18,844 nucleotides of DNA, taken from IMG/VR virus record IMGVR_UViG_3300045988_023617. One strand, written 5' to 3'. The stretch comes from a virus. Shown here in pieces: positions 3,625-18,844 of this stretch (position 1 is its first letter; each line of letters begins with the position of its first letter). The position numbers and the translations under genes were made by a program. The notes under the pieces were generated by a model. That model made no database searches, was not told where the DNA came from, and was given only the letters and a program-made list of their open reading frames with translations.

Positions 3625-5085
3625 ATGCGAGAGCGTCGAACGGCGGCAACAGACGGCGCAACATTATTGACGGATGACGGTATAACGCCATTGACGGCGA
3701 ACGCCGTCGTTCGCCTTACGATGCTTGACCATCATACGCGCGTATGGTGCGCACATGGATGGCAGGATATCAAGCTAATAGCGGCCGAGCTGTTGAGACG
3801 CCTCCCCCTGCAATCGAATCCGGCCAAGGATGGAGTTTATGGCACTTTTAATATTCGCGGCCACTTCTACAGTTTCCGCGTGCGCATGGGCGGTATCACC
3901 GTGGATTTTCTGGACGTGCGCAATGTCACACGCGACGACGGGCTGAATGTCTCACGTGAAACGTTTGGCGGTGCGGATGACTTGGAAACCACGTGGAACA
4001 TCGCGCAGGAATGCGACGCCCTGAGGCTCAAGGGCACGACCATAGCGTCTATGGCGATGGGCGATTATATCGGGGGAGATTACGCCGGATTCAAACAGCA
4101 CTTTCCGCCATTGGATAAAGCGGAATATCATCGGATGCGCCCCGCATACTATGGGGCGATAGTGTACAGCAGGCCGGGGGAATATCGGGATTGCAAGAGC
4201 TGGGACGTGAACAGCCTCTACCCGAGCGTCATGCGCGACTTTGCCATGCCCGTAGGCGCGCCGATATGGTATGAAGGAAAATATCATGATGATGCTGATT
4301 ATCCGCTGCATATCGATGTTATCTCGTTCGATGCTCGATTGAAGCCGGGGAAAACGGCTACGCTCACGAATATCCTACCCGTATGGGGGTACGAGGGCGA
4401 ACGTATGGACAGCACGTTAGGCGTCGTCACCATGCCAGTGGTCGACGTGGATTGGCAGACCTTGACGGAAAACTATGATGTCCATGCATGGGATTATATA
4501 GGCGGCTGGAAATTCCGTAAATCGCATGGACTCTATTACAACTACGTTGACAAATGGTTCCACGTGAAACAAACCGCAACCGGAGAGCGTCGGCAGATGG
4601 CGAAACTATTGCTTAATTCGTTGGTGGGGAAATTCGGAGCATCGCTTTATCGGCCTATGCTGCACCCGAAACCCTCTGGCGATGGCGGCGTGGATTTTAC
4701 CGTGGATAAACCCGAGTCAACCAACTCACTCGCATGGCTACCCACCGCCGCCTATGTCAACGCCTACGGGAGGCAAATACTGTCACGCGCGATGAATGCG
4801 AACGCCGACCGCGTGCTTTACGCCGATACGGACGGCATGATACTGGACGGACTGGATGCGCCCGCAGATATCGAAATGGACGATAAGAAACTGGGCGCGT
4901 GGAAAAACGACCACACCTATGAAAAACTCCGCATCCTCGGCAATCGCAAATACTGCGGCGCAGAGGAAGACGGCGGCACGGTGATGCGGTTGAGTGGCGT
5001 GCATCGAGCTGCCCCTATCCCCTACGACGACTTTTTGCCGAGGTCACGCCATGTCAACGATGACGGCTGTTTTTTTGTGCTATAA
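3625..5085 (+). CDS. Protein-primed family-B DNA polymerase (phi29 p2-like), compact 486 aa
   Basis: WDVNSLYPSVM (motif A, nt 4201-4233). MPVGAPIWYEGKYHDDADYPLHI matches phi29 LPYGEPIVFEGKYVWDEDYPLHI. AKLLLNSLVGKF (motif B, from about nt 4600). YADTDG (motif C, nt 4819-4836). KKLGAWKNDHTYEKLRILGNRKY (KxY). SD AAGGA lies upstream of the ATG. Confidence 0.95.
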   Translation: MRERRTAATDGATLLTDDGITPLTANAVVRLTMLDHHTRVWCAHGWQDIKLIAAELLRRLPLQSNPAKDGVYGTFNIRGHFYSFRVRMGGITVDFLDVRNVTRDDGLNVSRETFGGADDLETTWNIAQECDALRLKGTTIASMAMGDYIGGDYAGFKQHFPPLDKAEYHRMRPAYYGAIVYSRPGEYRDCKSWDVNSLYPSVMRDFAMPVGAPIWYEGKYHDDADYPLHIDVISFDARLKPGKTATLTNILPVWGYEGERMDSTLGVVTMPVVDVDWQTLTENYDVHAWDYIGGWKFRKSHGLYYNYVDKWFHVKQTATGERRQMAKLLLNSLVGKFGASLYRPMLHPKPSGDGGVDFTVDKPESTNSLAWLPTAAYVNAYGRQILSRAMNANADRVLYADTDGMILDGLDAPADIEMDDKKLGAWKNDHTYEKLRILGNRKYCGAEEDGGTVMRLSGVHRAAPIPYDDFLPRSRHVNDDGCFFVL

Positions 5086-5086
5086 T
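5078..5086 (+). promoter_or_regulatory. Extended -10 promoter (TGCTATAAT) overlapping the polymerase stop codon
   Basis: Perfect TGnTATAAT. The TAA stop (5083-5085) is part of the hexamer. It lies upstream of a 180-nt non-coding structured region and the scaffold and capsid genes. Confidence 0.5.
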
Positions 5087-5090
5087 AATC

Positions 5091-5251
5091 GGTAGCGGGG
5101 TGTGCGTCCCAAGCTGATTCAATGGCCCGACCGGTAGGCAATCGGTAAGGCGATTCGGTCGGATGTAGACGTGCGTAGCCAACGCCCATCGACGGCGAGG
5201 GAACCCGCACAGCCTAGCAATCCGGCACGGCAGCGTGATTGCCGCCGTGCC
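5091..5251 (+). ncRNA. Structured non-coding RNA candidate or long structured late-mRNA leader (possible packaging RNA)
   Basis: No credible ORF here. Hairpin CCGACC...GGTCGG (5127-5162) has inner stem AATCG/CGATT and loop GTAAGG. A long-range helix pairs TGTGCGTCCC (5101-5110) with GGGA..CGCACA (5199-5211). The terminal hairpin GGCACGGCAGC/GCCGCCGTGCC (5224-5251) has 10 of 11 bp and loop GTGATT. The implied RNA is about 160 nt if transcription starts just after the box at 5078-5086. Confidence 0.35.
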
Positions 5252-5271
5252 ATCTACCTTAAGAGGTGATT

Positions 5272-5639: not shown

Positions 5640-7370
5640 ATGGCAACTACGCCAGTGGTGACGCCGAAGCAGCAATTGCGCCCGCTCACCGAATTCAATA
5701 ACGCTCAGATTCTCAACATGATTCGTAACGAGGCTTCGCCGGAATACCAGCGGCGAATGCCCTCGGCCACTCAGATGAACATGGACCGCCAGATGGCTAC
5801 GCTTATGTCTTCCACCCAGCTGAAGAACGAGTTTTATTCGGCGCTGGTGAACCGTATCGGCGGCACCTACGTGAACACATGGCGTTGGAATAATCCTCTC
5901 AGCGTTTTCCAGCGGGCATCGCAGGCGTATGGCGACACGTGGCAGGAAATCGCCGTGGGAATGCCGCTCGCGCAGGTCTATGACCCTGATGCGGAATATC
6001 TCGGCGCGGATAACTTCCGCAAGTGGAAAATCGACGTGGATTCGCTCTATCATCGTCTGGACTTTGCTCACTGGTATCCTGCGACCACGGATGATAAGAC
6101 GCTTCAGCGTGCTTTCACTTCCGAAAACGGTCTGGCCTCGCTCACTTCTCAGATTCTCACATCCTGCTACAATGCGGCTGAGGTTGACTTGTTCGAGGCT
6201 CTGTGCCACCAATTCGTCGAATACGCGAAACTCGGCGGCTATTGGCGTGTCCACATGGACAATGACCTGAACAACATGGGTAGTTCGGAAACGGACGCTC
6301 GCGACATGCTACGCCAGATTCGCGCATGGGCGGACACGCTTAAATTCGTTTCCACCAAGTACAACGCCCGTCACATGCCGACCTTCGCCCGCCCGGACGA
6401 ACTCGTGCTGTTCTGTTCCCCGGAAGTCAAGTCGGCGCTTGACGTGCAGGGCCTCGCCACGGTATTCCAGCGTACCGACGCCGAGCCGACCATCGACCGG
6501 ATTATCGTTATCCCTCAGGACAGGTTCGGCATGGATGGCGTACAGGCCATCCTAACGACCGACAAGTTTCTGATTGACATTCCGGTCATTAACGAAATGA
6601 CTCAGCAGACTAATCCGGTCAACATCAATTCGGTGAACCATTATCTGCATGTCCAACACATCATCTCGGTGTCCGGCTTCGCTCCGGCTGTCATGTTCTG
6701 GACGGGTGCCGGTTCCACCGCGAACGTGGTGACCCCTACCGGCACGCAGGCCGAAGCGCCGAAGTTCCAGCTCAAGCTTGCCATGTATGGCGGCGGTTCG
6801 GAAACTCCGAGCGATGTGGCGCGTGGCGGCGCGGTGCAGGTTACTGCCGACACGACTATCGCTAATGACGGTACCGCCACGTTCCGCTCGGATGCGGTCG
6901 AGTATCGTATCGGTGACACCGCCAAGCCGAAGAGCGATTACACGTATGTCTCGCCTACTGGCGTGCTTGTGGTCGGACTTGACGAACCGAACACCACCAT
7001 CCCGATCACCGCAACCGCATTGTACACGAATCCGGCGACGCCGGAAGTGCCGGGAACCGTGTCCGCGGCTCTGGACGTGCCAGTGGTCGGTGACGGTGTT
7101 ATCGGATTCAATCCGTCCATCATCGCATCCATTGCCGTGACCGTCCCGAACATGATCGTAGGACATACGGCGCAGGCGACTGCCGTGGCGACCATGATTG
7201 ACGGACGCACCGCCGACGTGACCGCACAGGCCGCTTGGACGTCCGGCACTCCGGCGAACGCCACCGTGTCCGAGTCCGGCGTGGTGACTGGCGTCAAGGC
7301 GGGCAGCTCTGACATCGCCGCCACGCTGTTCGGCGTGTCCGGCAAGAAGAGTGTGACCGTGACCGCGTGA
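5640..7370 (+). CDS. Major capsid protein (phi29 gp8-like) with C-terminal Ig-like (Big_2-type) domain
   Basis: [20 protein letters not shown] resembles gp8 [32 protein letters not shown] resembles NDFITSLVDRIG. NNPLSVF resembles [20 protein letters not shown] resembles IYNSAEVDEYEYM. The C-terminus ([68 protein letters not shown]) is a typical Big_2 pattern, and a second beta-rich segment precedes it. Strong SD GGAAGGAAGGA. Confidence 0.92.
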   Translation: [576 protein letters not shown]

Positions 7371-7376
7371 TATAAT
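7368..7376 (+). promoter_or_regulatory. Extended -10 promoter (TGATATAAT) overlapping the capsid stop codon
   Basis: The TGA stop (7368-7370) supplies the TGn of a perfect TGnTATAAT. A 105-nt structured leader follows, up to the tail-knob ATG. Confidence 0.5.
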
Positions 7377-7422
7377 GGGAGGGTAGCCGGTTGGCTACTC
7401 TCTCTCACGGTGTGATGCAAGA

Positions 7423-7463
7423 CAAGGCCCGGAGCGCAATCCACGTGATTGCTCCGGGCCTTG
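7423..7463 (+). promoter_or_regulatory. Strong hairpin between capsid and tail-knob genes (attenuator or RNA-stability element)
   Basis: CAAGGCCCGGAGC (7423-7435) pairs perfectly with GCTCCGGGCCTTG (7451-7463), 13 bp, plus an inner AATC/GATT stem. The apex contains CACGTG. No T run follows. A smaller hairpin GTAGCC-GGTT-GGCTAC lies at 7383-7398. Confidence 0.5.
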
Positions 7464-7481
7464 CCATACCGGAGGACAATA

Positions 7482-9809
7482 ATGATTGACGACGCGAACC
7501 CTTACGTAGAATCTAATTTTTCTTGGGCGGAATGGACACCGAACACGACACTGAAACTCTGCCGAGTGCCGTGGGATGCTTCATACCGTGATATCGTGCG
7601 GTTTGTTTCACGTGAAACGCAGCGAGAATGGTTCGACAAACTGGACGGCGTGGAATGCCGTCCGGCCACTATGCATATTTTCAACGCGCCCGCCCGCGTC
7701 GAACTGCCGTTTAACGAAGCATCGAACTGGAATTATCTTGTAGCCTATAACGACTACCCCGAATTGGAGGGGCCTCGCGCGTGGTATTACTTCATTCAGC
7801 GCGTCGAATACGTCAACGCCCATTGCACGCAATTGGTCTTGATGCTGGACGTGTGGCAGAGTTTCCAGCACGACGTCACATTCGGTAGCTGCTATGTGAC
7901 GCGCGGTCATATCGGCGTCGCCAACGAACGCCAGTGGAATGACTATGGGCGCACATATCTGGCGCTCCCGGAGGGCTTGGATACCGGAAGTGAAATGGTC
8001 ACAACGTCACAGGAATATCAGAGCATTATCGAAGGACGGCATTATGACATAGATGGCGGTGCCGTCGATTGGGTCGATTACGGTTTGATTGTGGTCAGCA
8101 CCACTAATCTCACCGACGACCCCGGCAGCACGTCCGAACCAAAGCTTACCACCGCAACCGGGGCCATCTTCGAGCAGGAGACGGACGGCTGTTCTGTCTA
8201 CTATTGTGAAAACCGAATGGCGTATGTCGCCAACATCATGGCCCTTGGCACGCTGTTCCCGTGGATAACGCAAGGTATTTGCGCCGTCTACATGGTGCCG
8301 AAAATTCCACAGGATTACGTGAGCCGATATGGGCATAGGGTTACGGAGATTTACGGGCAGCCAGTGTCAGAGGAATACGGCAACATTTATTCTTTTAATT
8401 CCTCTCTCGATTCGGACTTACGCTACGAGGATGTTATGTCCGTTGCGAACTTTCGCAATAAATTCAACATCCCCGCCCGATACCGGAATCTGCGCAAGCT
8501 CTATTGTTATCCGTTCTGCGTTATAGAATGCAGCTGTCTGAACGGCACGGTCATTACTTATCGACCTGAAGATATTCAATCCGATACGCTCACTGTCCGT
8601 GAAACCTACACTTACGCGCCGTCCGGTGCAAGAATCAATTTCTACATTCCCGGCTACAATGAGGCTGGAGCGACTACTACGGTCCCGCTGCGTATCGACG
8701 GCAAAGACATGGGGCTACCGATAGACGGCGGCGAAATGCTCAACGCAAGTTTCGGTATCACCAATTTGCCTCACTTTTCAGTGGTCAACAATGGTGGCGC
8801 GCTGGCTATGGCGAACAGCGCGTACACCCGCGCCTACGCGCAGGAGTCAGCCCAATGGACCAGGCAAAAGGCTTTAACTTCGGCTAACGTGGTCAACTCC
8901 AATGCCGCATTACAGCGCGAATACGCCACACGGCAAACCAATTGGGCAAACGAGAATCGGACGGCAACCAACGCCATCACTGCAAACTCGCTAAACCAGT
9001 CCCTTGCCATCGGACAGAATCAGACCAGCCAGATGGCTAATCTCCAAGTGGAGCAAAATATCAAGAGCAACAATCTCAACGGTATGGCCGGTATCATCGG
9101 GGGGGGACTGAACGCCGTCGCATCCCGCAGTCCATTGGGTGCGGTGAACGCGGTTGGCGGCGCGTTCCTCGGCTCCGCACATACGGACATCGCCAATTAC
9201 GGCATCAATTCGTCTGCCGCTGTCTCCAATTCCACGGCGGCGGCGAATACGGCGAATCAGATTGCCACCAATGCGGCGGCCACGTCGCAGGCCAACGCCT
9301 ACGCAAGCGGAGCGACCGCACTGGGCAACCAGCTGAACGCCGTCGTGTCGCAGGCGAATTACGGACTGGCCTCATATGCGGCTCAAGGTGATTACCAAAA
9401 CGCCATCGCCGGAATTAACGCTCAGGTGCAGCAGATGCAACTGACTCCGCCAACCACTTCGGGAGCGCTCGGCGGTGACATGTTCAACTTAAGCAACGGA
9501 ATTATGGGCGTGTTGGTGCGGTTCAAAACGTGTGCGCCGAGCGCGTTGAGGGCGGCAGGTGAATACATGCTACGCTATGGGTATTTTGTCCAGCGATTCG
9601 TCACCCCTCCCGCCTCACTGGAATGCATGGAGAAATTCACGTTCTGGCAGATGCAGGAGGCGTATGTGCGGGGCACGCTGCCTGAAGAATACCGACTGAC
9701 AATCAAAGGTATGTTTGAACGTGGTGTGACGGTTTGGGACAAGCCCGAGTATATCGGCGTGACTGACTGGGCTGACAATGAGCCACTTCCGGGCATTGGT
9801 TACGAGTGA
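7482..9809 (+). CDS. Tail knob / distal tube protein (phi29 gp9-like)
   Basis: The track ORF begins at TTG 7449, inside the hairpin. ATG 7482 has GGAGGA 5 nt upstream and gives 775 aa. [28 protein letters not shown] resembles gp9 [41 protein letters not shown] resembles [25 protein letters not shown] resembles [23 protein letters not shown]...GVTVWD resembles KYGYKINR...GITLWH. Confidence 0.88.
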   Translation: [775 protein letters not shown]

Positions 9810-9815
9810 TATAAT
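9807..9815 (+). promoter_or_regulatory. Extended -10 promoter (TGATATAAT) overlapping the tail-knob stop; 6 nt upstream of the portal ATG
   Basis: The TGA stop (9807-9809) is the TGn of a perfect TGnTATAAT. The hexamer ends at 9815 and the portal ATG starts at 9822. No SD lies between them. Confidence 0.55.
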
Positions 9816-9821
9816 GGCAGT

Positions 9822-10772
9822 ATGAGTAGGTCTAAAAAGAATCGAGTTGGCGGCGCGTTGCACCCACGTGGCAATTACGCGAAAACACGCGCCGTCACGC
9901 TTGATGACATGTATCTTCATTTGCTGATGGAACTCGCACTGAACCGTTTCAGCTGGCGCGGATTACCGCCCACTGTAGACGAACGTTGGCTGGAAATATG
10001 TCTGTGCGAATACGGATGCGCGTTGTTTTTCGAGGATAAGCGTATCGGCAGGTTCCTTGTGACTCAGGCAGGTTATCAAGGCAGATTGAACGTGTATAAT
10101 AATCCGACATGTTTCGAGCCGGTAGGCGTCAACTACCACTACAAGCAGCTCAAGGCCGGTTCGGAATGCATCCCTATCTGGGATAATCGAATGCGCGTCG
10201 GATTCAAGCCGACGTTATGGCAGTACGCGCGGCGCCTCGCCGACATTGACAAGGCGTATGACGTGAATCTGGAGAGTCTGAAGCTGCCGACCATCATCAC
10301 TGCCGACCCTCGCACCAAGCTCACCGTGCAGAACATGCTTCAACAACGGCAGGACGGTCAGGATTATATTATCGGATACGATTCGCTTGACCCCGGCAGC
10401 TCGTTCCAGCCGTGGCCGAACACAACGCCTTATCTGTTGGACAAGTTCGTCCAGCAAAAAGCGCAAGTGACTAATGAGGTGTTGGGATATCTCGGCATTC
10501 AATCGTCCGGCACGGAGAAAAAGGAACGGCTTATTTCCGATGAGGTGGCGCAAGCCAATGAGAAAGTAGACGTGTTCCGCTTGAGTTTCCTCAAGGCGCG
10601 GCAGACTGCGGCGACTGAGATTAACCGATTGTGGCCGCAACTGAACGTGTGGGTGGAGTATGCGGACGCGCAAAGCTCCGGCGTGCCCAACGCGCTTGAT
10701 TCAAGCGCAGGCGGCACTACGGACATCGATATGCCCGCATCGTACGACGCGGGTATCGGAGGGGTATTATGA
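9822..10772 (+). CDS. Portal / upper collar connector protein (phi29 gp10-like)
   Basis: 316 aa. LALNRFSWRGLPPTV resembles gp10 LAYQLFEWENLPPTI. GTEKKERLISDEV resembles NLEKKERMVTDEV. Basic N-terminus, as in gp10. No SD is present, so this is a candidate leaderless gene. Confidence 0.9.
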   Translation: MSRSKKNRVGGALHPRGNYAKTRAVTLDDMYLHLLMELALNRFSWRGLPPTVDERWLEICLCEYGCALFFEDKRIGRFLVTQAGYQGRLNVYNNPTCFEPVGVNYHYKQLKAGSECIPIWDNRMRVGFKPTLWQYARRLADIDKAYDVNLESLKLPTIITADPRTKLTVQNMLQQRQDGQDYIIGYDSLDPGSSFQPWPNTTPYLLDKFVQQKAQVTNEVLGYLGIQSSGTEKKERLISDEVAQANEKVDVFRLSFLKARQTAATEINRLWPQLNVWVEYADAQSSGVPNALDSSAGGTTDIDMPASYDAGIGGVL

Positions 10773-11566
10773 TGACGCAGGATTTTACCGCCTATGCTAT
10801 GGAGACTCCCGGCGAGTACACTGAAACTCTCGGCAATCTCATTGCATTCGGATACGACACGGCTGACAAGCTGCATCTGTCCGCCGACTACTATCCGATT
10901 TACCGAGAAGAACATCGTGCGGAATTGAACGAGAAAATCGTTCGCCATTACGCATTAAGGGAAATTGGGCAGGAAACCGCGCAGCAATTCGTTTTCTACT
11001 TGGGAACGACGATGGCGGAAATCATGCCCTATTTCAACGAGCGTTACCGGACGCTGGACATGCAATACAATCCGTTGGACTCTATGGATATGACGACGGA
11101 CAGCGAGAGCGGCAGCGAATCCCAGTCGTCCGGCAAAGCGTCCAGTACGCAGGACTCGACCAGCTCTAGCACATCCAAGTCAGACAATTCCAGCACTACC
11201 ACGTCAAAGAGTTTTGATAGCGACGTGCCGCAAACCGGTGTTGTAGGCGACTTCGCCCGCTACGCCTCCCATGCGAACGAATCGCAGGCGGACAGTTCCG
11301 GTACCGCGTCCAGTTCGCAGGATTCGACCAGTCACACCACGGCGCAAAGCGCAACCGACTACCAACACGATTCGAGCAACGCAAAGGGCAAGAGTCATGT
11401 GACCGGGCGCAGTCAGAGCGCCATGAGTCTGATTCAGGAATACCGGAACGCCATCATCAACGTGGATATGGAAATCGTACGCAGCCTCGAACCGTGTTTC
11501 ATGCAGATATGGGGTTCGTATGATACAATATTCGGCAACTGCCATAACTATGGAGAATGGGAGTAA
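10769..11566 (+). CDS. Lower collar protein (phi29 gp11-like) with long Ser/Thr-rich central segment
   Basis: 265 aa. ATGATG overlaps the portal stop (ATGA coupling), and GGAGGGG lies upstream. It sits directly after the portal. An N-terminal helical region (REIGQETAQQFVFYLGTTMAEIMPYFNERY) is followed by an S/T/D/Q-rich stretch and a conserved-looking C-terminus (LIQEYRNAIINVDMEI). Confidence 0.7.
   Translation: MMTQDFTAYAMETPGEYTETLGNLIAFGYDTADKLHLSADYYPIYREEHRAELNEKIVRHYALREIGQETAQQFVFYLGTTMAEIMPYFNERYRTLDMQYNPLDSMDMTTDSESGSESQSSGKASSTQDSTSSSTSKSDNSSTTTSKSFDSDVPQTGVVGDFARYASHANESQADSSGTASSSQDSTSHTTAQSATDYQHDSSNAKGKSHVTGRSQSAMSLIQEYRNAIINVDMEIVRSLEPCFMQIWGSYDTIFGNCHNYGEWE
11521..11529 (+). 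promoter_or_regulatory. Candidate extended -10 box (TGATACAAT) upstream of the appendage genes
   Basis: TGn + TACAAT, 40 nt upstream of ATG 11569, inside the 3' end of the lower-collar gene. Confidence 0.3.
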
Positions 11567-11568
11567 TC

Positions 11569-12159
11569 ATGAGCACCATTAATGCACTGGTTCCACGGCA
11601 ACGCTTGTTCGACGGGGTGCCGACATCTGTTCCGTTCACTTATCGGGACGGGCTGACAACTTTGCAGTTGATTGAATGCTTGCGCCATAATCTTGACGCT
11701 TTGCAGACATATGTAGATAAGGTTAAAGAATGGGTGAAGTCCGAATCCGACAAGACAGATGCGGAAATCTCCGAAATCAGCGAACATCTTGCGTCGGTCG
11801 ATGTGCAGCTTGAGGATATTATAAGCAAGCTCGGCAAGCTCGAAATCACCAATGATATTTATGACGTAACGCAAGGGCGGTACGTTGATAGCGTTGACGC
11901 AATGCGTAATATGTATCGCGAACTGGCTGTATTTGGCGCACGAGTCAACCAAATGGCACAACTATCCGTGCCGATGGCCGCCGCACATACGTGTCTTGAG
12001 TTCGCGGTGCTTGGCAACAAGACCATTTTCCACAACGACGAACCGCGCATTACGCCACGCGACGCGCACGTGGATGACGGCGAACCCGTCAATCCGCTAT
12101 CGGTGGAGAATCTCGCCAACAGTGTCGTGGTTAACGATTTTATAAAAACCGCAAAATAA
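11569..12159 (+). CDS. Putative neck/tail appendage structural protein with central coiled coil, 196 aa
   Basis: The track ORF starts at 11557. ATG 11569 lies 2 nt after the upstream TAA, with GGGAG 5 nt upstream. A heptad-like segment (LDALQTYVDKVKEWVKSESDKTDAEISEISEHLASVDVQLEDIISKLGKLE) is present. It sits between the collar and fiber genes. Confidence 0.5.
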   Translation: MSTINALVPRQRLFDGVPTSVPFTYRDGLTTLQLIECLRHNLDALQTYVDKVKEWVKSESDKTDAEISEISEHLASVDVQLEDIISKLGKLEITNDIYDVTQGRYVDSVDAMRNMYRELAVFGARVNQMAQLSVPMAAAHTCLEFAVLGNKTIFHNDEPRITPRDAHVDDGEPVNPLSVENLANSVVVNDFIKTAK

Positions 12160-12177
12160 TAGGAAGGATTACGGCAA

Positions 12178-12531
12178 ATGACCAGCAAAACCTCAAATTA
12201 TAATCTTGAGAAATATGACGCGACGGACGCGCCTAACCTTGAAGGCTCGTACAACCGTTCGATGGACATTCTCGATACGACGTTAAAGACGCAGTCGGAT
12301 AGGATTGACGCCATTCCGACACCGGAGTCACTACCGGAAGGTTTGAGTGCATTCACTGCCGCCCTTGGACTGAGCGCCGCTAACGCCAATGCGCTCGGTA
12401 CCGCGCTTAATCACTTCCTCAACCGTGTTCCCGCAACCAGTGGCGGCCAGTACACCGTCAAGAACCTCAACGACACCAAGGTCACCGCGGAGGGTCTGCC
12501 GTTCGTTTCCACCACTGCTTCGGGAGATTGA
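12178..12531 (+). CDS. Appendage protein 1 (117 aa) carrying the shared N-terminal fiber-anchor module
   Basis: SD AGGAAGGA. N-terminus KTSNYNLEKYDATDAPNLEGSYNRSMDILDTTLKTQSDRI aligns without gaps to the N-termini of the next two gene products. Confidence 0.65.
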   Translation: MTSKTSNYNLEKYDATDAPNLEGSYNRSMDILDTTLKTQSDRIDAIPTPESLPEGLSAFTAALGLSAANANALGTALNHFLNRVPATSGGQYTVKNLNDTKVTAEGLPFVSTTASGD

Positions 12532-12722
12532 TGGACATGGCAGACGGACAGCAGGCCACGCCGGTGGACTCCGCCGCGTACGGTATGACGGGACATTTTG
12601 GACTGCCGCTTTACAATGACGCGACACCGATGGACATGCGCGACGGGTTCAACAGAGCCATGCGCATGATAGACCAGATTCTAAATCAGCTCAATACTCA
12701 AATTCGAGAAAAAAAGGACTAA
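12531..12722 (+). CDS. Appendage protein 2 (63 aa), essentially the shared anchor module alone
   Basis: ATG 12531 overlaps the upstream TGA (TGATG), and GGGAG lies 4 nt upstream. The track lists a TTG start at 12528. Contains MTGHFGLPLYNDATPMDMRDGFNRAMRMIDQILNQLNTQI. Confidence 0.55.
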   Translation: MDMADGQQATPVDSAAYGMTGHFGLPLYNDATPMDMRDGFNRAMRMIDQILNQLNTQIREKKD

Positions 12723-12725
12723 ACA

Positions 12726-14660
12726 ATGGCTACCGTATACAGTAAAACCGATAATTACGGGCTTAATTTGTATGGCGACAATGACCCAGCCGATTTAAGG
12801 GACGGCTACAATGGCTCCATGCACACCATTGACGATACGCTCGGAAAGCACCTTAACCGAATCGAAGGTGTCGAGTCGCGTGAAACGCATGATGAGGAAG
12901 TGGTCAAAGCGCTGATTGGTGATAACACGGTTGACAGCGCCACCGCATCGAAAGCCAAATGGGATAAATCGATTACAGACGCCGCCGCCGCAACCGCCGC
13001 CGCCGCAGCCGCAGCAGGTAAGGCGGACGACAATACCGCGATTCTCTCCGCGTTGGGAGCCGACACCACGGCAAACGCCACCGCCAATAAAACCAAATGG
13101 GATAAAGCGGGAGCGGACGCAGCGACAGCCATAGGCAAGGCTGACAACAATAAAACAATTCTTACCGCACTTGGGGCAGGCTCAACCGTTGACGCCACGA
13201 CGCAAAAAACCAAACTGGACAACACCGCCACCAAGGTGGACGAGCTTGCGAACGCGCGCGTGGACAGCAAGCTTGACTCGCACTTCATCATCCATGCGCA
13301 CCGTGGTTCCTACCGTTTTCCCGAAAACACAATGGAAGGGATTATGTGGGCGGTACGTCACGGATATATACCTGAAATCGACGTGCAACTCACGTCGGAC
13401 GGCGTGCCCGTAATCCTACACGACACCTCCACCGCCCGCACGATGACGGGGACGGCAGCTAACGTTTCATCCATCACTTACGCCGATTTTATGTCACGTG
13501 AAGTCAAAGCCAAGGTTCACGGCGGCAACACCGGCAAGCCAGTGAGTATGGAACAGGTGCTACAGGCTGTGGGGGATAGTCCCGTCGATTTTGAAATCAA
13601 GTCATTGACCAACGAAACTACGGACGCAATGCTGGAACTACTGCGAAAGTATAGCGCCACCGCAATCCACGAAGTGACTTCGTTCAGCTGGGAACAGTGC
13701 GTCCGCGCCGTGCAAGGGGGCATAAAATACGTTTCGTGGACGTGGGACGCTAACGCCATGCCACATTCTTGGGCTGACATGAAGAATGCCGGTATTTTCT
13801 GCGGAAACCCGCGTGAAGACAAACTCACTTCGGCAATGGTCAGCGCCGCACACTCGGCTGGCGTCAAGATTAATCCGTGGCTTATTAATGATCCCGTGGC
13901 ATATGAGCGAGTCACCGCGCTTGGAGTTGATGGCATTACCTCCAATTGGCCGGATTACGCCAGTGGACAGTTGGAGCGCAACTTCACGCCATTCAGCACG
14001 GGACAGAACGTTTTCATGCGTCCGAACTATGCCCCACAAGGCGGCACGGTATCACAGGAAATATCGGAAGCGGTTAGGGCGAAAAGCTCGTATCTCGCAC
14101 CGGACGGACTTTTCCAACTCGGAGACGCGGACTCTCAGATGCTAGTGGAATTGGTTGAGTGCGGCACGGTGACGCTGCCGGTCAGTATCGACCTTGAAGG
14201 GTTTGAGTCTCGCGTTCAGATTGGCGAGAATGGCGAGACGAAGAACATTGCAGTAATCGCAGTGAAGGAGTCAACCCCTATCGGCCAATTCAACGACGTG
14301 GCAACGGCTGGACAGGTCGGTATCATTGCGGGCGTTCGACGTAACGGTGCTACATTCGGCGGTTTTTATCAAGACAATGTGACGACGGTTGCCTTCGATA
14401 ATACCCCCGCAGTGTCTCCATCTGTGCCAAACGACAAAGCCGTAGGTGTGCATGCGTCCTTCGTTCTCGACCGTGACCACGCTCGAATCATTTGGGCGTA
14501 TTCCAATGGACAATCAGGTGATGTGACCACAGGAGATAATAAGGGCGTCACGTTGCCGGATACCGATAAATACCGTCTGTTTATCCGCCTTGCTCGCAAT
14601 TTTAAGAGCGCATGGAAAATTAGGGTACGCCCCTCTGATGGTTATCTCTACGAGAACTGA
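12726..14660 (+). CDS. Tail appendage / receptor-binding protein with glycerophosphodiester phosphodiesterase (GDPD) domain
   Basis: 644 aa. It carries the shared N-terminal module (KTDNYGLNLYGDNDPADLRDGYNGSMHTIDDTLGKHLNRI) and ~40-aa repeats with an Ala run. The GDPD signature is HAHRGSYRFPENTMEG...EIDVQLTSDGVPVILHD...INPWLINDP...GVDGITSNWPD (approx nt 13281-13955). A ~230-aa C-terminal domain of unknown fold follows. Confidence 0.85.
   Translation: MATVYSKTDNYGLNLYGDNDPADLRDGYNGSMHTIDDTLGKHLNRIEGVESRETHDEEVVKALIGDNTVDSATASKAKWDKSITDAAAATAAAAAAAGKADDNTAILSALGADTTANATANKTKWDKAGADAATAIGKADNNKTILTALGAGSTVDATTQKTKLDNTATKVDELANARVDSKLDSHFIIHAHRGSYRFPENTMEGIMWAVRHGYIPEIDVQLTSDGVPVILHDTSTARTMTGTAANVSSITYADFMSREVKAKVHGGNTGKPVSMEQVLQAVGDSPVDFEIKSLTNETTDAMLELLRKYSATAIHEVTSFSWEQCVRAVQGGIKYVSWTWDANAMPHSWADMKNAGIFCGNPREDKLTSAMVSAAHSAGVKINPWLINDPVAYERVTALGVDGITSNWPDYASGQLERNFTPFSTGQNVFMRPNYAPQGGTVSQEISEAVRAKSSYLAPDGLFQLGDADSQMLVELVECGTVTLPVSIDLEGFESRVQIGENGETKNIAVIAVKESTPIGQFNDVATAGQVGIIAGVRRNGATFGGFYQDNVTTVAFDNTPAVSPSVPNDKAVGVHASFVLDRDHARIIWAYSNGQSGDVTTGDNKGVTLPDTDKYRLFIRLARNFKSAWKIRVRPSDGYLYEN
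12927..13250 (+). repeat. In-frame ~40-aa tandem repeats (about 2.5 copies) in the fiber shaft
   Basis: The units are SATASKAKWDKSITDAAAATAAAAAAAGKADDNTAILSALGA, TANATANKTKWDKAGADAATAIGKADNNKTILTALGA, and the partial VDATTQKTKLDNTATKVDEL. Confidence 0.75.
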
Positions 14661-14676
14661 TGGACTATTTTAAGCG

Positions 14677-14709
14677 ATAGCCATGCTGCTATAATAGCAG
14701 CATGGCTAT
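14677..14709 (+). promoter_or_regulatory. Perfect 33-nt palindrome containing an extended -10 box (TGCTATAAT, 14687-14695) and the ATG of the tail-lysin gene
   Basis: ATAGCCATGCTGCTAT-A-ATAGCAGCATGGCTAT has 16-nt arms with no mismatch. TATAAT (14690-14695) straddles the centre. ATG 14702 is in the 3' arm, exactly 6 nt after the hexamer. TACTTTTG follows the palindrome. Confidence 0.6.
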
Positions 14710-15940
14710 TACTTTTGATGATTGGGTTAAGCAGACACAAGACCGATATTGGGATATGGATGGCGCATACGGTGCGCAGTGCTGGGACCTATGGGCCAAG
14801 TATAGTATGGACATGTATGGTCTGAGCGTTCAAGACTGCATCACCCCCACCGGCTATGCCGAGGGATGCTATACGAGGTTCCCCTACACCGCCGCACTCG
14901 GCAACGTGTATGAGAAAATGGACTCCAATTATACGCCAGTTAAGGGTGACGTGGTTTTTTGGACATTCGGCGGTCAAATCTACACTGGCTCCCATGTCGC
15001 AATCGTATGGGGTGGCGTCACTGGCGATAATATCGATGTTCTAACACAAAATCCCACTCCGGCAGTTCATCAAACCTTGCCACTCTTGCGCGGTTCGCAG
15101 CTGCTCGGCTACCTGCATCCCAAGAACTTGCAGCCGGGCGGCACGACGCCGGATAATCCGAACGGCGGCAATCCCACGGGTGGGGATAATCAAGGTTCGG
15201 GCGTGTCTGGCGGTTCGTCCGCATGGATACAGCAACAGGGCGATAATTTGATATACCATTACGGCTCGCGTAGTGGCGGCATGTCGGCGTTGTTCGTCAA
15301 GACTACCGCGCAGAATTGGATATATCGCGGCGCGTCCGGCACGGGTGCGCCGGATGGAGACGGCGGGCAATCGTCGCCCAGTGTAGGCGACGGCGAGTCA
15401 AGTTATGCGCTTTATGTGGTGGGCACGGTTGAATCATCATTGCGATGGGATGCGGTAGAGCCTAATCGCCAAGGCATCGGCATTGCGCAATGGAGTTTCG
15501 GCCGCCGCCTGCAAGTACTGAACGCGATGAAGACGGTTGACGCTGATGGATACCGGACGTTCGCCGCCGCCGCGCCGGACATTGTCGCGCTTATGGACTC
15601 GGGCGGCACGTTTGACAGGGCAATGACCGGTAGTGAGGTTGCTGCGTTCCAGACGTGGGCACGTCGTCCTCAGTCTCATGCGGGTCAACGCGCTCAGTTC
15701 GCTACGGATTACGAGGGCTATCCGCAAAAATACGACGACGCGAAGATGCAAATACTGTGGACTTGCGCATATCATCAATCTCCCGCAGGTGCGTTGAACG
15801 TGCCGACCGCGACCACGCTTGCGGGGTTGCGTGACAACATTCTAGCCACATCCCCGTTCGGACCATATGGCACGCGATATCAGGCCGCCTATAGCTTGCT
15901 GAACGTCTGGGATGGGAAGAGTGCGCCGCCAAACTTTTAA
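14702..15940 (+). CDS. Tail-associated peptidoglycan hydrolase: N-terminal CHAP endopeptidase/amidase + C-terminal phi29 gp13-type lysozyme-like domain
   Basis: 412 aa. CHAP signature: DMDGAYGAQCWDL (Cys27), GSHVAIVWGG (His98), VLTQNP (Asn117). A Gly/Asn/Pro linker covers aa ~145-175. C-terminal VVGTVESSLRWDAVEPNRQGIGIAQWS resembles gp13 GNMQSESTINPGLW...GFGLVQWT, with a putative catalytic Glu in GTVES. It occupies the phi29 gene 13 position, after the appendage gene. Confidence 0.8.
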   Translation: MAITFDDWVKQTQDRYWDMDGAYGAQCWDLWAKYSMDMYGLSVQDCITPTGYAEGCYTRFPYTAALGNVYEKMDSNYTPVKGDVVFWTFGGQIYTGSHVAIVWGGVTGDNIDVLTQNPTPAVHQTLPLLRGSQLLGYLHPKNLQPGGTTPDNPNGGNPTGGDNQGSGVSGGSSAWIQQQGDNLIYHYGSRSGGMSALFVKTTAQNWIYRGASGTGAPDGDGGQSSPSVGDGESSYALYVVGTVESSLRWDAVEPNRQGIGIAQWSFGRRLQVLNAMKTVDADGYRTFAAAAPDIVALMDSGGTFDRAMTGSEVAAFQTWARRPQSHAGQRAQFATDYEGYPQKYDDAKMQILWTCAYHQSPAGALNVPTATTLAGLRDNILATSPFGPYGTRYQAAYSLLNVWDGKSAPPNF

Positions 15941-15946
15941 CAAGTG

Positions 15947-15955
15947 TGCTATACT
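15947..15955 (+). promoter_or_regulatory. Extended -10 promoter (TGCTATACT), 6 nt upstream of the ATPase ATG
   Basis: TGn + TATACT ends at 15955 and the ATG is at 15962. There is no SD before either ATG 15962 or the track's GTG 15944. Confidence 0.5.
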
Positions 15956-15961
15956 GGACAC

Positions 15962-17065
15962 ATGGGTGACATTAACGTGCTTAATGAGAATGATTATTAT
16001 GACTATGGTAGAGCATTGTCTTATCATAGTCCTTGGATGTTCGTAATCGGAGCACGTGGCCTCGGGAAAACCTATGGCGCTAAAAAATTGGTTATCGGTG
16101 ATTGGATTAAGAAACGCTGGCAATTCATTTATCTACGCCGGACAGCAGAGGAACAGAAGAATAAGGGCACATGGTTTGCAGACGTCGCGGAGCAATACCC
16201 GGAACTGGAATTTAGAGTGTCCGGGAATCAGGCCGAATGTCACTGGCTGGATGACAGGGACGCAACCGCAGACAAGCATGGCAAGAGCCGTGCGACATGG
16301 CATGTCATGGGGTATTTTATCGCCCTATCGCAAGCTGGACAGGTGAAATCGGTTGCCTACCCTAAAGTACGAACTATTATCTTCGACGAAATATTCCCCG
16401 ACAATATGCGCTATCTCGGCGGAGAAGTTACGGCGCTTGAGGAATTTTACAACACGGTTGACCGTTGGAACGATAGGGTTCGCGTTATCATGTGCAGCAA
16501 CGCCGTAACGTTGGCTAACCCGTATTTCAGCGCGTTTAATATCAACCTAAAACCGCAGTTGGATAATCACACACAATATCAGCGATATTGTGACGGGTTC
16601 ATCATGGTGGAATTGGCCGATTACGGCGGATTCAGTGCCAAGGTTGCCACATCTAAATTCGGACAGTTTTTACGCAGGTATGACGAAAATTATGCGAATT
16701 ATGCAATCAATAATAATTTTAGAGATAATGCCAATGCTCTCATTAGTGATTTTAATAACGCCGGTTATGCGTTCACATTAAGAACCACTGAATACGGCGT
16801 TTTCAACGTTTATCAACAACTAAGCGATACCGATGAAGTATTGTATCTCATCACAAAAAAACAACCTAAAATCACAAGGGATTTTACATTTGACTATCGA
16901 CTGGTCGATAACGATTGTATGATGCTCAAACGTTCGGACGACATGACCCAGAAAATATTAAACGCCTATCGCGTCGGTAGATTACGGTTCGAGACTCCGC
17001 AAATTAAGGCGGAATTCAGTATGATTCTTGGCGGCTTGTTGCAACAATCAGGCATAAGAAAGTGA
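15962..17065 (+). CDS. DNA encapsidation (packaging) ATPase, phi29 gp16-like
   Basis: The track ORF starts at GTG 15944; ATG 15962 gives 367 aa. LSYHSPWMFVIGARGLGKTYGAKK resembles gp16 LSYDRILNFVIGARGIGKSYAMK (Walker A). QFIYLRRT resembles QFIYVRRY. TIIFDEIF resembles TIVFDEFI (Walker B). RVIMCSNAVTLANPYF resembles RCICLSNAVSVVNPYF. RVGRLRFE resembles MNGYLRFD. Confidence 0.93.
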   Translation: MGDINVLNENDYYDYGRALSYHSPWMFVIGARGLGKTYGAKKLVIGDWIKKRWQFIYLRRTAEEQKNKGTWFADVAEQYPELEFRVSGNQAECHWLDDRDATADKHGKSRATWHVMGYFIALSQAGQVKSVAYPKVRTIIFDEIFPDNMRYLGGEVTALEEFYNTVDRWNDRVRVIMCSNAVTLANPYFSAFNINLKPQLDNHTQYQRYCDGFIMVELADYGGFSAKVATSKFGQFLRRYDENYANYAINNNFRDNANALISDFNNAGYAFTLRTTEYGVFNVYQQLSDTDEVLYLITKKQPKITRDFTFDYRLVDNDCMMLKRSDDMTQKILNAYRVGRLRFETPQIKAEFSMILGGLLQQSGIRK

Positions 17066-17073
17066 GGATAATA

Positions 17074-17436
17074 ATGACGCAAGCAAACATATGGTGTACC
17101 ATTGCAGTCATATTTTTTATTAGCATCGACTACGTTACTGGCGTGGTAAAAGCAATCATGCGTGATAATCTGAGTTCGCGAAAGATGCGGGAGGGACTAG
17201 GGCACAAGTTCGCCTATCTTATGCTTGTGCTGGTGGCATGGTTCATCGACGAAGTGAACCGGCATATCAATTTAGGACTGCCAATGTCCGTATTTGTCTG
17301 CACGGTCGGCGGAGTATGTCTAATCGAACTCACGTCAATCCTCGAAAACGTCACCGAAATCAATCCCGAATTAAAAAACGCGCCATTCATGCAGATTTTC
17401 GCTCAATCCACAAATGACAAGCATAAGGCGGAATGA
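17074..17436 (+). CDS. Holin (phage_holin_4 / TcdE-like family), ~3 TM segments
   Basis: The track ORF starts at GTG 17062. ATG 17074 has GAGGA 5 nt upstream and gives 120 aa. ISIDYVTGVVKAIMRDNLSSRKMREGLGHKFAYLMLVLVA is the characteristic family pattern. Hydrophobic segments lie at aa ~6-25, 50-65 and 75-97. It sits directly upstream of the endolysin and overlaps it. Confidence 0.75.
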   Translation: MTQANIWCTIAVIFFISIDYVTGVVKAIMRDNLSSRKMREGLGHKFAYLMLVLVAWFIDEVNRHINLGLPMSVFVCTVGGVCLIELTSILENVTEINPELKNAPFMQIFAQSTNDKHKAE

Positions 17437-18320
17437 TGGACGGCATAATATGGATAGGCTCGCCAAACCATTACAATGGACGCAATGGATACGCCGTGAC
17501 ACACATAACGCTGCATATCATGGTCGGCCATCTCGCCGGAACGGATAGCGTATTTTTGAGCGCCAATTCGCAGGCAAGTGCGCACTATGGTATCGGCGCG
17601 GACGGTGCAATTCATCAATACGTGAGCGAAAACGACGGCAGCTACAGTGACGCCAATTTCACGTCAAACAATTCGACAATCAGCATAGAACACGAAGGGG
17701 GTATGAACGGAATACCTTGTACGCAAGCGTGCATGAACGCTTCCGCTCGACTCTGTGCCGACATAGCACGCCGATATGGTTGGACGCACCTGCGGCACGA
17801 TGGACTCAACGGCAACATATGGTTACACCGCGAAGTGCCGGGCACCGACCATTACGGCTGTCCCGACCTAGCGCCAAACGGACTCGACATAAATTATGTT
17901 ATCAACAAAGCAAATCAAATTCTAGAAGGAGCCGACGAAATGGCATTGACCGACGAAGATATTATGAGATTCTGGACACACAAACTCCCAAACGGACGCG
18001 CAGCACGCGACATTATCAGCGACGCAACCAGCGACGTAATCCGAATGCACGACACGGGACTTGTCGGCGGACAATGGATGCACAAACTTCCAAACGGCCG
18101 ATACGCCCGCGATATTGTAAGCGACGCAACCAGCGACGTAATCCGTATCCACGACACCATGCTACCAGCATTAACCGCACAAGTAACGGCGCTCACGGCA
18201 GCAGTAAAAGCATTATCCGAGTCGATAGGCGCCAATCCCGACACCATTGCCAAGACCGTGCAGGACGCGGTAAAAGCAAAACTGGACAGTCTGAAAATCA
18301 CCGTAACAGACGAACAGTAG
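17433..18320 (+). CDS. Endolysin: N-acetylmuramoyl-L-alanine amidase (Amidase_2/PGRP fold) with repeat-containing C-terminal region
   Basis: 295 aa. ATGATG overlaps the holin stop. Motifs: HITLHIMVG, SAHYGIGADGAIHQYV, TISIEHEG, and LHREVPGTDHYGCPD (a Zn-ligand His/Cys pattern like T7 lysozyme). The C-terminus carries two 34-aa repeats plus an Ala/Leu/Lys-rich helical tail. Confidence 0.85.
   Translation: MMDGIIWIGSPNHYNGRNGYAVTHITLHIMVGHLAGTDSVFLSANSQASAHYGIGADGAIHQYVSENDGSYSDANFTSNNSTISIEHEGGMNGIPCTQACMNASARLCADIARRYGWTHLRHDGLNGNIWLHREVPGTDHYGCPDLAPNGLDINYVINKANQILEGADEMALTDEDIMRFWTHKLPNGRAARDIISDATSDVIRMHDTGLVGGQWMHKLPNGRYARDIVSDATSDVIRIHDTMLPALTAQVTALTAAVKALSESIGANPDTIAKTVQDAVKAKLDSLKITVTDEQ
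17979..18159 (+). repeat. Tandem ~78-bp direct repeat with 102-bp period inside the endolysin gene (two 34-aa protein repeats)
   Basis: HKLPNGRAARDIISDATSDVIRMHDT and HKLPNGRYARDIVSDATSDVIRIHDT. The copies start at 17979 and 18081 and share an identical block, agcgacgcaaccagcgacgtaatccg. Confidence 0.85.
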
Positions 18321-18331
18321 CGCGACATAAG

Positions 18332-18370
18332 AAAGCCCCCTAGGTTATTGCCTAGGGGCTTTACTTTTTA
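18332..18370. terminator. Bidirectional intrinsic terminator between the convergent endolysin and right-terminal genes
   Basis: AAAGCCCCCTAGG (18332-18344) pairs with CCTAGGGGCTTT (18351-18362): 12 bp with one bulged C and loop TTATTG. It is followed by ACTTTTTA on the + strand. On the - strand, the stem's terminal A-T pairs and the flanking sequence give TTTCTTAT. Confidence 0.8.
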
Positions 18371-18374
18371 TACG

Positions 18375-18632
18375 TCAATCGCCGTTGTCAACCGAGACAA
18401 CATACGTACGGCACGGGCGACCCTTCTTAGACAAACACCGCCTGGTTTCAACGTAATCATAATCGTAGCTCAAAGAAAGTTCGATAACCGCTGCAAGAGC
18501 GGACTCGAACGTAATAACACTATCATCAAAACGACCATTATCACGAACGGGAGTCTTGAGCACGCCTTCAATACAAACTTCGTACCAATTGTCCTCTTCA
18601 AGTTCGATAACATAAGCGTTAAAATTAATCAT
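18375..18632 (-). CDS. Right terminal early protein, 85 aa, acidic, unknown function; start codon lies inside the ITR
   Basis: The only credible minus-strand gene. The ATG (complement of 18630-18632) and its SD are ITR sequence. It ends 5 nt before the bidirectional terminator region. Confidence 0.65.
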   Translation of the reverse strand: MINFNAYVIELEEDNWYEVCIEGVLKTPVRDNGRFDDSVITFESALAAVIELSLSYDYDYVETRRCLSKKGRPCRTYVVSVDNGD

Positions 18633-18844
18633 TTTATTTTTTTCCTTTCCCTATCGGTTGATACTCACATCATACCACACACCAAAAACAACACACCCAA
18701 AACACACAAAAAAACAACACAAAAAAACCCCACCACAACCACAACCACCAACAATACAAGCAAGAACACACAACGCAAAAGAAAACACAAACACATAACA
18801 GAGCGGTTGTGGAAAAAGGCTAGTGGCTGGGGCCCCTCCCCTCC
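18629..18844. repeat. Right inverted terminal repeat (216 bp)
   Basis: Exact reverse complement of 1..216. It contains the mirror copies of the extended -10 box, the SD-like GGAAAGG and the ATG that opens ORF 18375..18632 (-). Confidence 0.97.
18669..18677 (-). promoter_or_regulatory. Extended -10 promoter (TGGTATGAT on the minus strand) inside the right ITR, firing inward
   Basis: Mirror copy of 168-176, with the same distance to the ATG of the right terminal gene. Confidence 0.5.

Follow-up and report, generated by a model that had tools for sequence, protein, structure and literature searches.

How are the portal, lysin and packaging ATPase genes of a phi29-like phage expressed when none of them is preceded by a Shine-Dalgarno (SD) sequence? 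The question is raised by IMG/VR record IMGVR_UViG_3300045988_023617, an 18,844-bp stretch of DNA (hereafter the window) that represents a complete linear genome, with 216-bp perfect inverted terminal repeats at 1-216 and 18629-18844. An earlier note, made from the letters alone, had pointed out that each of the three genes starts with an ATG placed exactly 6 nt after a -10 box, and had suggested that their mRNAs are leaderless. Comparison with related phages makes it likely that extended -10 promoters direct transcription of these mRNAs from the A of the ATG onwards and that 70S ribosomes translate them. The elements concerned are as follows.

9807-9815, + strand: extended -10 element of the portal gene, TGATATAAT; the hexamer TATAAT is at 9810-9815, and the TGA doubles as the stop codon of the tail-knob gene
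9816-9821, + strand: discriminator/spacer of the portal gene, GGCAGT, the 6 nt between hexamer and ATG; no SD (anti-SD duplex -2.5 kcal/mol)
9822-10772, + strand: portal (upper collar connector) gene; a leaderless mRNA is predicted to start (+1) at ATG 9822
14687-14695, + strand: extended -10 element of the lysin gene, TGCTATAAT; TATAAT at 14690-14695 lies in a hairpin loop and is followed by AGCAGC and ATG 14702
14702-15940, + strand: CHAP/tail-lysozyme lysin gene; predicted +1 at ATG 14702
15947-15955, + strand: extended -10 element of the ATPase gene, TGCTATACT, 7 nt past the lysin stop codon; TATACT at 15950-15955 is followed by GGACAC and ATG 15962
15962-17065, + strand: packaging ATPase (Gp16) gene; predicted +1 at ATG 15962; first cistron of the ATPase-17074-17433 unit

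The window phage is a phi29-like, protein-primed podophage, with marker genes and terminal repeats present. It encodes a protein-primed type-B DNA polymerase, a phi29-type major capsid protein, a tail knob, a Gp10 connector, a lower collar, a GDPD-domain tail protein, a CHAP/tail-lysozyme lysin and a Gp16 packaging ATPase, and the phi29-like marker domains PF03175, PF05352, PF05894 and PF25622 are all matched. Almost all of its approximately 22 genes lie on the + strand. The identities that the earlier note had assigned to the three focal genes agree with domain matches: the portal product matches Phage_connector/Gp10 (E 4e-42; PF05352 and phrog_2038), the ATPase product matches Podovirus_Gp16 (E 3e-42), and the lysin product has CHAP and tail-lysozyme domains. 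When the whole window was compared with the phage collection by megablast, no match was obtained. Judged by the portal protein, the closest cultured relatives are the Bifidobacterium phages BD811P1, BP1 and BadAztec, at ~46-47% amino acid (aa) identity. The 90%-identity protein cluster of the portal holds 3,810 member sequences from many public assemblies, and by this measure the uncultured gut phi29-like group to which the phage belongs is very abundant.

Within the window, the hexamer, the 6 nt and the ATG lie at all three genes precisely where they had been reported, at a frequency far above chance. The pattern TATAMT-N6-ATG is observed three times against 0.23 expected, a count that none of 200 shuffles reached, and every match is the first start codon of a long open reading frame (ORF). 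Our analysis adds to the earlier note an extended -10 TGn, a covarying hairpin at the lysin start and three further conserved promoters of the same type that carry leaders. TGn precedes the hexamer at all three focal sites, and TGNTATAMT occurs seven times in the window (0.72 expected; 0 of 200 shuffles reach seven), six times on the + strand, at 3511, 5078, 7368, 9807, 14687 and 15947. None of the portal, lysin and ATPase sites has a usable -35 element that passes a two-hexamer promoter scan. Because a missing -35 is expected for extended -10 promoters, we rejected it as a sign that no promoter is present and read the sites as having extended -10 architecture. In relatives, conservation in the -35 region of the portal site follows the codon pattern only.

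The missing SD, also pointed out before, is borne out by duplex energies with the anti-SD. These are -2.5, +1.3 and -3.0 kcal/mol for portal, lysin and ATPase, values that do not improve on the -2.8 kcal/mol median of random positions. To make the comparison with other genes, four mechanically assigned ORF starts were corrected, to tail ATG 7482 (preceded by GGAGG), 11569 (GGGAG), 17074 (GAGGA) and terminal-protein GTG 2665 (AGGGGGG). With these starts, the other genes of the window have energies of -4.1 to -12.7 kcal/mol, and genes neighbouring the focal ones carry strong sites of the GGAGG or GGAAGG type, much as the earlier note had stated. The sole exception is gene 17433 (-2.7 kcal/mol), which has a weak AAGG and an ATGA overlap with the preceding gene.

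The same arrangement is found in close relatives. A portal-based scan yielded 80 IMG/VR loci whose portal proteins are 92-99% identical to that of the window. At the portal start, TGnTAnnnT followed by exactly 6 nt and ATG is present in 80 of 80 loci, all of which have the TG. At the lysin start, TAnnnT followed by ATG is present in 52 of 52 loci across four N-terminal lysin types, with a gap of 6 nt (36 loci) or 7 nt (16 loci); the TG occurs only in the window-type cassette, and the other lysin types carry GGG. At the ATPase start, all 71 loci have [T/C]AnnnT and then a start codon, with a gap of 6 nt in seven loci and 7 nt in 64, and 68 have the TG. Thus, the spacing of exactly 6 nt holds for the window, whereas in relatives it is 6 or 7 nt. 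An SD was detected by regular expression in none of the 80 portal loci and in one of the 52 lysin loci, and none is visible in the 71 ATPase upstream regions. The identical flexible search applied to 18 other genes retrieved only zero to eight loci per gene, with TG in none; counts for the tail gene in relatives are under-sampled because the query began at 7483 and the ATG is at 7482.

Most informative is the pattern of substitutions at the portal site. In 69 distinct sequences of the 12-nt non-coding gap before the portal gene, numbered with the A of ATG as +1, only T-15, G-14, T-12, A-11 and T-7 are invariant. Positions -13, -10, -9, -8 and all six spacer positions vary, giving seven hexamers and 25 spacers; the spacer is always 6 nt long, and -1 is always C or T. 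The invariant bases are those contacted by sigma regions 2 and 3 in promoters of the sigma70 family. A hexamer at -12 to -7 would place +1 on the A of the ATG. The TG is retained in 14 portal-site sequences in which the stop codon of the tail gene shifts from TGA to TAG, so it is not an artefact of the stop codon. Each focal gene has seven to 12 hexamer variants, nearly all TAnnnT, with CATAAT at some ATPase sites, and the start codon is ATG except for GTG in three distinct ATPase variants. Motif, spacing, conservation pattern and lack of an SD are all seen directly.

Most relatives have, ~12 nt upstream of the extended -10 of the ATPase gene and thus roughly in the -35 place, a perfect palindrome, ACCGGTAGATATCTACCGGT, that is absent from the window. 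It may terminate the lysin transcript or act as an operator. A different candidate, a possible hairpin within the window's own ATPase site (GTGT..ACAC), was rejected after close relatives gave it no consistent support.

A sister clade of phages has leaders at the corresponding places. The set consists of 80 IMG/VR loci with portals 94-96% identical to that of B. dentium phage BD811P1. Their portal genes (80 of 80) and nearly all of their ATPase genes (68 of 69) are SD-led. In BD811P1 and BP1, which share the gene order of the window but whose portal and ATPase genes are likewise leadered and SD-led, a plain TATAAT without TGn directly follows the tail stop codon and a TGnTATAAT directly follows the lysin stop codon. 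These promoter-like hexamers are then followed by hairpin-containing leaders of ~50 nt and ~105 nt, respectively, with strong SDs. Because the hexamers reside in the same two places, promoter position is conserved over ~47% protein identity, and the presence of a leader is what differs. This positional homology is itself an observation. It provides a natural system in which the contribution of a 5' leader could be studied in Bifidobacterium, with the same promoter positions leadered in one clade and predicted to be leaderless in its sister.

The lysin gene is shared in a different manner. The window-type lysin cassette is present in 67 of 70 sister-clade loci, and many sister-clade contigs are the very contigs that were also retrieved with the lysin pattern. 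Cultured phage BP1, whose host is B. pseudocatenulatum U19, has an annotated lysin start of ATAGCCATATCGCC-TATAAT-GGTGAT-ATG and thus, like the window, has the succession of hairpin, TATAAT, 6 nt and ATG; BD811P1 differs in having an SD-led lysin of another type. In one locus of the BD811P1-type clade (L146), a remnant of the cassette, TATAAT-GGTGGT-ATG plus a few codons, is fused upstream of a BD811P1-type, SD-led lysin.

The occurrence of the cassette in sister-clade genomes suggests a mosaic module that circulates within one gene pool, and hence that Bifidobacterium is the likely host. A portal protein scan of genome contigs, made in search of the host, gave no match, and a search for lysin homologues retrieved metagenomic phage proteins only. 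Relatives and shared modules indicate that the host is probably Bifidobacterium. This fits the hint of the earlier note at an actinobacterial host: the nearest cultured relatives infect Bifidobacterium, BP1 has the same lysin cassette, and 15% of transcription start sites (TSSs) in B. pseudolongum are reported to be leaderless (PMC4782308).

From these patterns we infer the actual TSSs, and leaderless translation from them, as follows. The sigma-A RNA polymerase of the host would transcribe the genome from -35-less extended -10 promoters (TGnTAnnnT). At three of these promoters, 6 nt separate the hexamer from the ATG that opens a transcription unit, such that transcription would start at the A of the AUG. 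The predicted units run from portal to tail-fibre (9822 to ~14720), from the lysin start onwards (14702), and from the ATPase to the lysis genes (15962 to a terminator at 18337-18358). On such leaderless mRNAs, 70S ribosomes would bind through the 5'-terminal AUG and initiator tRNA, with no SD pairing, and downstream cistrons in the three units would use ordinary SDs.

At the lysin start, the promoter is embedded in a hairpin.

14672-14714, + strand: palindrome/hairpin of the lysin site; the core stem pairs 14676-14691 with 14695-14710, and the -10 hexamer is the loop
14711-14720, + strand: U-rich tail ACTTTTGATG, directly 3' of the hairpin and overlapping lysin codons 4-6; from the terminator scan

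The stem is a perfect 16-bp helix with seven G-C pairs, its arms are extendable to 21 nt, and its 3' arm consists of the spacer, the AUG and codons 2-3. RNA that spans the site folds with -33.4 kcal/mol (z-score -6.4), and RNA that begins at 14702 is unstructured (z-score +0.67). Across the clade, strongly structured starts are found for 98% of lysin and 63% of ATPase genes; portal starts are not structured. Loci for the analysis of the lysin site were fetched by using only the N-terminal coding sequence of the lysin, so the set (27 distinct upstream sequences) is unbiased upstream. In 21 of these, 95.9% of alignment cells in the stem are paired, compared with 21-51% in slid controls; five pairs exhibit compensatory double changes, and none of 500 shuffles reaches the observed score. 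The covariation is thus directly observed. While the stem varies, positions 1, 2, 4, 5 and 6 of the loop hexamer are invariant across the alignment. A loop conserved above its stem is the opposite of what a purely structural hairpin would present. In other lysin types, the covarying hairpin is a different, G+C one (ATACCCC...GGGGTAT), and its 3' arm leads into a TATACT that stands 6-7 nt before the ATG. A search against Rfam at E<=1 returned only a sub-threshold chance match, to IBV D-RNA, on the palindrome.

The hairpin with its tail, ACUUUUGAUG, passes the terminator scan, although the tail is interrupted and overlaps conserved codons, so that its conservation is inseparable from coding constraint. 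We infer that the stem and U-rich tail form a terminator-like site for the upstream tail operon. RNA reading in from that operon would form the hairpin and would either terminate at the U-rich tail or keep the SD-less lysin AUG buried. RNA initiated in the loop would lack the 5' arm and, as judged by folding predictions, would be open for translation, in which case lysin expression would depend on the internal promoter. We tentatively propose, with somewhat less than even confidence, that the cassette is a dual element of 35-43 nt, combining a terminator or AUG clamp at the RNA level with a promoter in the loop at the DNA level, such that lysin is made only upon de novo initiation, and that phi29-like phages of the Bifidobacterium type, cultured BP1 among them, share it as a mosaic module across at least two clades. 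Its presence in BP1 makes the cassette directly testable on B. pseudocatenulatum.

Because the site is palindromic, the - strand at 14682-14699 mirrors its geometry, with TGCTATTAT, AGCAGC and an ATG that opens a 4-codon ORF (MAIA*). This mirror image is probably a by-product of the palindrome, although it could give rise to a short antisense RNA. A reading of the palindrome as a single-stranded-DNA promoter was rejected, since transcription templated by the 5' arm would yield no lysin mRNA.

Several considerations weigh against leaderless initiation at the three genes. All of the support comes from comparing sequences; the 80 relatives are close to one another and are not independent samples, with the sister clade adding some depth, and the host assignment is drawn from relatives instead of from direct identification. 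A spacer of 7 nt makes a 1-nt leader possible. All three sites invariably have a pyrimidine at -1, but this is also common at SD-led genes and does not discriminate; the Y-1/R+1 rule was therefore dropped as evidence. The genes are co-oriented, and read-through from upstream promoters must cross the portal and ATPase starts, before which the terminator scan of the window found no terminator, so part of the translation of portal and ATPase could be internal. In its full form, this last idea holds that the three ATGs are internal starts on a polycistronic late mRNA, used by SD-less termination-reinitiation or by 70S scanning after the upstream stop codon, and that the hexamers are promoters, or AT-rich spacers, that do not define a 5' end. 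Transcripts from promoters at 7368 and 9807 would indeed run across the portal and ATPase starts, no structure is seen in the portal region, and the distances from the upstream stop codon to the ATG are short (12 nt for portal, 41 nt for lysin and 21 nt for ATPase). However, coupling does not explain why sigma-contact bases are invariant and the spacing is fixed at 6-7 nt in 80 of 80, 52 of 52 and 71 of 71 loci. Read-through RNA would bury the lysin AUG in a -33 kcal/mol stem, and all other coupled genes in the genome retain an SD. We therefore regard purely internal initiation as unlikely.

Even less probable is that the lysin palindrome serves mainly for RNase III cleavage, for termination or as a protein operator, with the mRNA 5' end made by processing and the TATAAT of the loop incidental. 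A near-perfect duplex of 16-21 bp has the size of a classical RNase III substrate, the stem covaries, the site is flagged as terminator-like, and the - strand repeats the geometry by virtue of the palindrome. Against such functions, it is the loop hexamer that is held constant (at the five positions above) while the stem changes, other lysin types have their hairpin upstream yet retain TATACT, 6-7 nt and ATG, and the motif and its spacing recur at the unstructured portal site. G.U combinations in the stem (13 cells) outnumber A.C combinations (seven cells), which disfavours an operator and favours a + strand RNA helix only weakly, too weakly to choose between a helix at the RNA level and one at the DNA level.

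The geometry would be irrelevant if the starts had been mis-assigned, for example if the ATPase began at GTG 15944 and the portal at TTG codon 13. Public gene callers do give portal lengths of 304, 316 or 318 aa, and 304-aa calls stand beside 316/318-aa versions within the portal cluster; GTG 15944 is in frame with the ATPase. Disagreement among gene callers about the portal start is, however, to be expected from an SD-less start, and the predicted SD-less starts would account for it (304-aa versus 316-aa calls). GTG 15944 has no SD (+1.9 kcal/mol), is replaced at this position (-18) by GCG or GCA in five of seven close relatives (with an in-frame TAA at -21 in some), and would extend the ATPase 6 residues beyond the N-terminus of the BD811P1 protein, which aligns from ATG 15962. 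No other start codon for the portal lies between the in-frame stop at 9807 and ATG 9822. The protein sequence of portal codons 2-12 is conserved through synonymous and Ser-switch changes, and codon 2 is Ser in all relatives, whether encoded by AGT or by TCT. Thus, as first in-frame starts with protein-level conservation from codon 2, the three ATGs appear to be the right start codons, and mis-assignment is so improbable as to be nearly negligible.

Leaderless initiation from extended -10 promoters thus remains the preferred account, and the part of the earlier note that proposed it has gained strong comparative support for a -10 placed such that the A of an SD-less ATG would be the start. The accompanying rationale, that leaderless translation sets a low stoichiometry of portal, lysin and ATPase relative to capsid, is not supported. 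The sister clade, which builds the same kind of virion, has strongly SD-led portal and ATPase genes, and mycobacterial leaderless mRNAs, which derive from ~14% of genes, are not systematically translated worse (PMC7148126). A simpler reading would be that the three genes are the promoter-proximal cistrons of three transcription units.

The mechanism itself is already known from Actinobacteria and Thermus phages. In Mycobacterium, Corynebacterium, Streptomyces and B. pseudolongum, as in the window, TANNNT ends 6-7 nt before an AUG or GUG that lacks an SD and usually opens the first gene of an operon; there, the AUG or GUG is the TSS. The window differs from these cases in that the genes serve late functions of a phi29-like phage (structure, lysis and packaging), TGn is nearly universal, one site lies in a hairpin, and the TSS is predicted. 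In Deinococcus, a -10 motif that abuts the ORF, with a required spacing, was experimentally shown to drive leaderless genes (PMC12340547). For Thermus thermophilus phage phiYS40, PMC3594737, citing Sevostyanova 2007, summarizes that most middle and late mRNAs are leaderless and arise from -10-type promoters used by the host RNA polymerase. The bulk of the middle and late genes of phiYS40 are leaderless and IF2/IF3 levels shift, whereas in the window only three of ~22 genes would be leaderless and the rest are SD-led. The two phages are of unrelated types and infect hosts of different phyla. A programme in which most late transcripts are leaderless was not found in the window, where the other conserved promoters carry leaders of 100-185 nt.

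An older example is the lambda cI mRNA made from PRM, whose 5' end is the A of the AUG; cI can also be read from an upstream promoter as leadered RNA. That gene, unlike those of the window, is a regulatory gene of a temperate coliphage whose host is inefficient at leaderless translation, and its start is not occluded by a hairpin. Phage phi29 shares with the window phage the use of host sigma-A RNA polymerase (predicted for the window), a small protein-primed genome and the same structural gene set. However, the early and late operons of phi29 are divergent, its only late promoter, A3, is activated by p4, and its genes are SD-led, whereas the window exhibits near-total co-orientation and at least six conserved internal promoters. 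What is new here is the phage lineage, the natural pairing of leadered and predicted leaderless forms at homologous promoters, and the lysin cassette with a putative promoter in a hairpin loop.

The remaining promoters of the same type, and the terminator at the end of the rightward genes, are as follows.

7368-7376, + strand: promoter TGATATAAT at the capsid stop codon; 16 of 18 nt are common to the portal site; leadered
5078-5086, + strand: promoter TGCTATAAT at the polB stop codon; kept in 67 of 67 relatives
3511-3519, + strand: promoter TGGTATAAT, ~105 nt upstream of polB ATG 3625; leadered and SD-led; present in 64 of 65 relatives
18337-18358, + strand: terminator-like hairpin CCCCTAGG..CCTAGGGG followed by a T-rich stretch, where the rightward genes end; from the terminator scan

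The window thus appears to have at least six conserved internal promoters, of which three are predicted to be leaderless and three to have leaders of 100-185 nt. Six co-oriented extended -10 promoters provide a predicted transcription map for abundant uncultured gut phi29-like phages.

The promoter at 7368 is followed by a hairpin-rich leader of ~100 nt and a GGAGG SD at 7471-7475, before tail ATG 7482. The capsid-tail intergenic region (7377-7481) has two strong hairpins (z-score -6.0), and the tail gene starts at ATG 7482, not at the mechanically called TTG 7449. These hairpins may attenuate tail expression relative to capsid.

Downstream of the promoter at the polB stop codon, a non-coding stretch of 185 nt precedes the scaffold gene (5087-5260). 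It is nearly invariant in 67 relatives, with a length of 184-189 nt. Its core (5095-5222) is predicted to adopt a multi-branch fold of ~128-130 nt closed by a 5'/3' helix, and a hairpin at ~5224-5252, just before the scaffold SD, has five compensatory pairs. At the matching position, BD811P1 and BP1 have a promoter, an RNA of ~165 nt and a terminator, with the same hairpin loop, GUGAUUG. A comparison of the 5087-5260 RNA with the sister clade by nhmmer gave no sequence match, so the analogy is positional only, and the Rfam prohead RNA (pRNA) model found no match in the window. The RNA at 5095-5222 is a candidate pRNA.

The leader of the replication genes also has conserved structure. The element TGATATCAT at 2563-2571 is followed, within 2563-2667, by two conserved hairpins, one of the form GGCAACGTCCC-TATA-GGGATGTTGCC and the other CACCCCCCGCCG...CGGCGAGGGGTG, after which comes TTTCAT (fold z-score -4.4). 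The most probable start of the terminal-protein gene is GTG 2665, with SD AGGGGGG, and not ATG 2590. The 2563-2667 region looks like an attenuator or a small-RNA element in the leader.

Each terminal repeat contains an inward-facing TGGTATGAT, at 168-176 and 18669-18677. The right-hand copy would drive the sole likely gene of the - strand (18375-18632, 85 aa), as in BD811P1 and BP1.

The last gene of the + strand (17433-18320) has two 83-nt direct repeats at 17973-18157 that are 83% identical and 102 nt apart, which amounts to an internal domain duplication. The BP1 gene at the corresponding position carries the annotation of an SH3b-domain endolysin and has a holin before it; hence, the ATPase unit probably includes lysis genes too.

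A palindromic motif, TTTCACGTGAAAC, occurs three times in the window, at 3939-3963, 4557-4578 and 7595-7619. In many relatives, it lies precisely where the tail-fibre gene meets the lysin hairpin. The motif may be the site of a regulator or a recombination hotspot at module borders.

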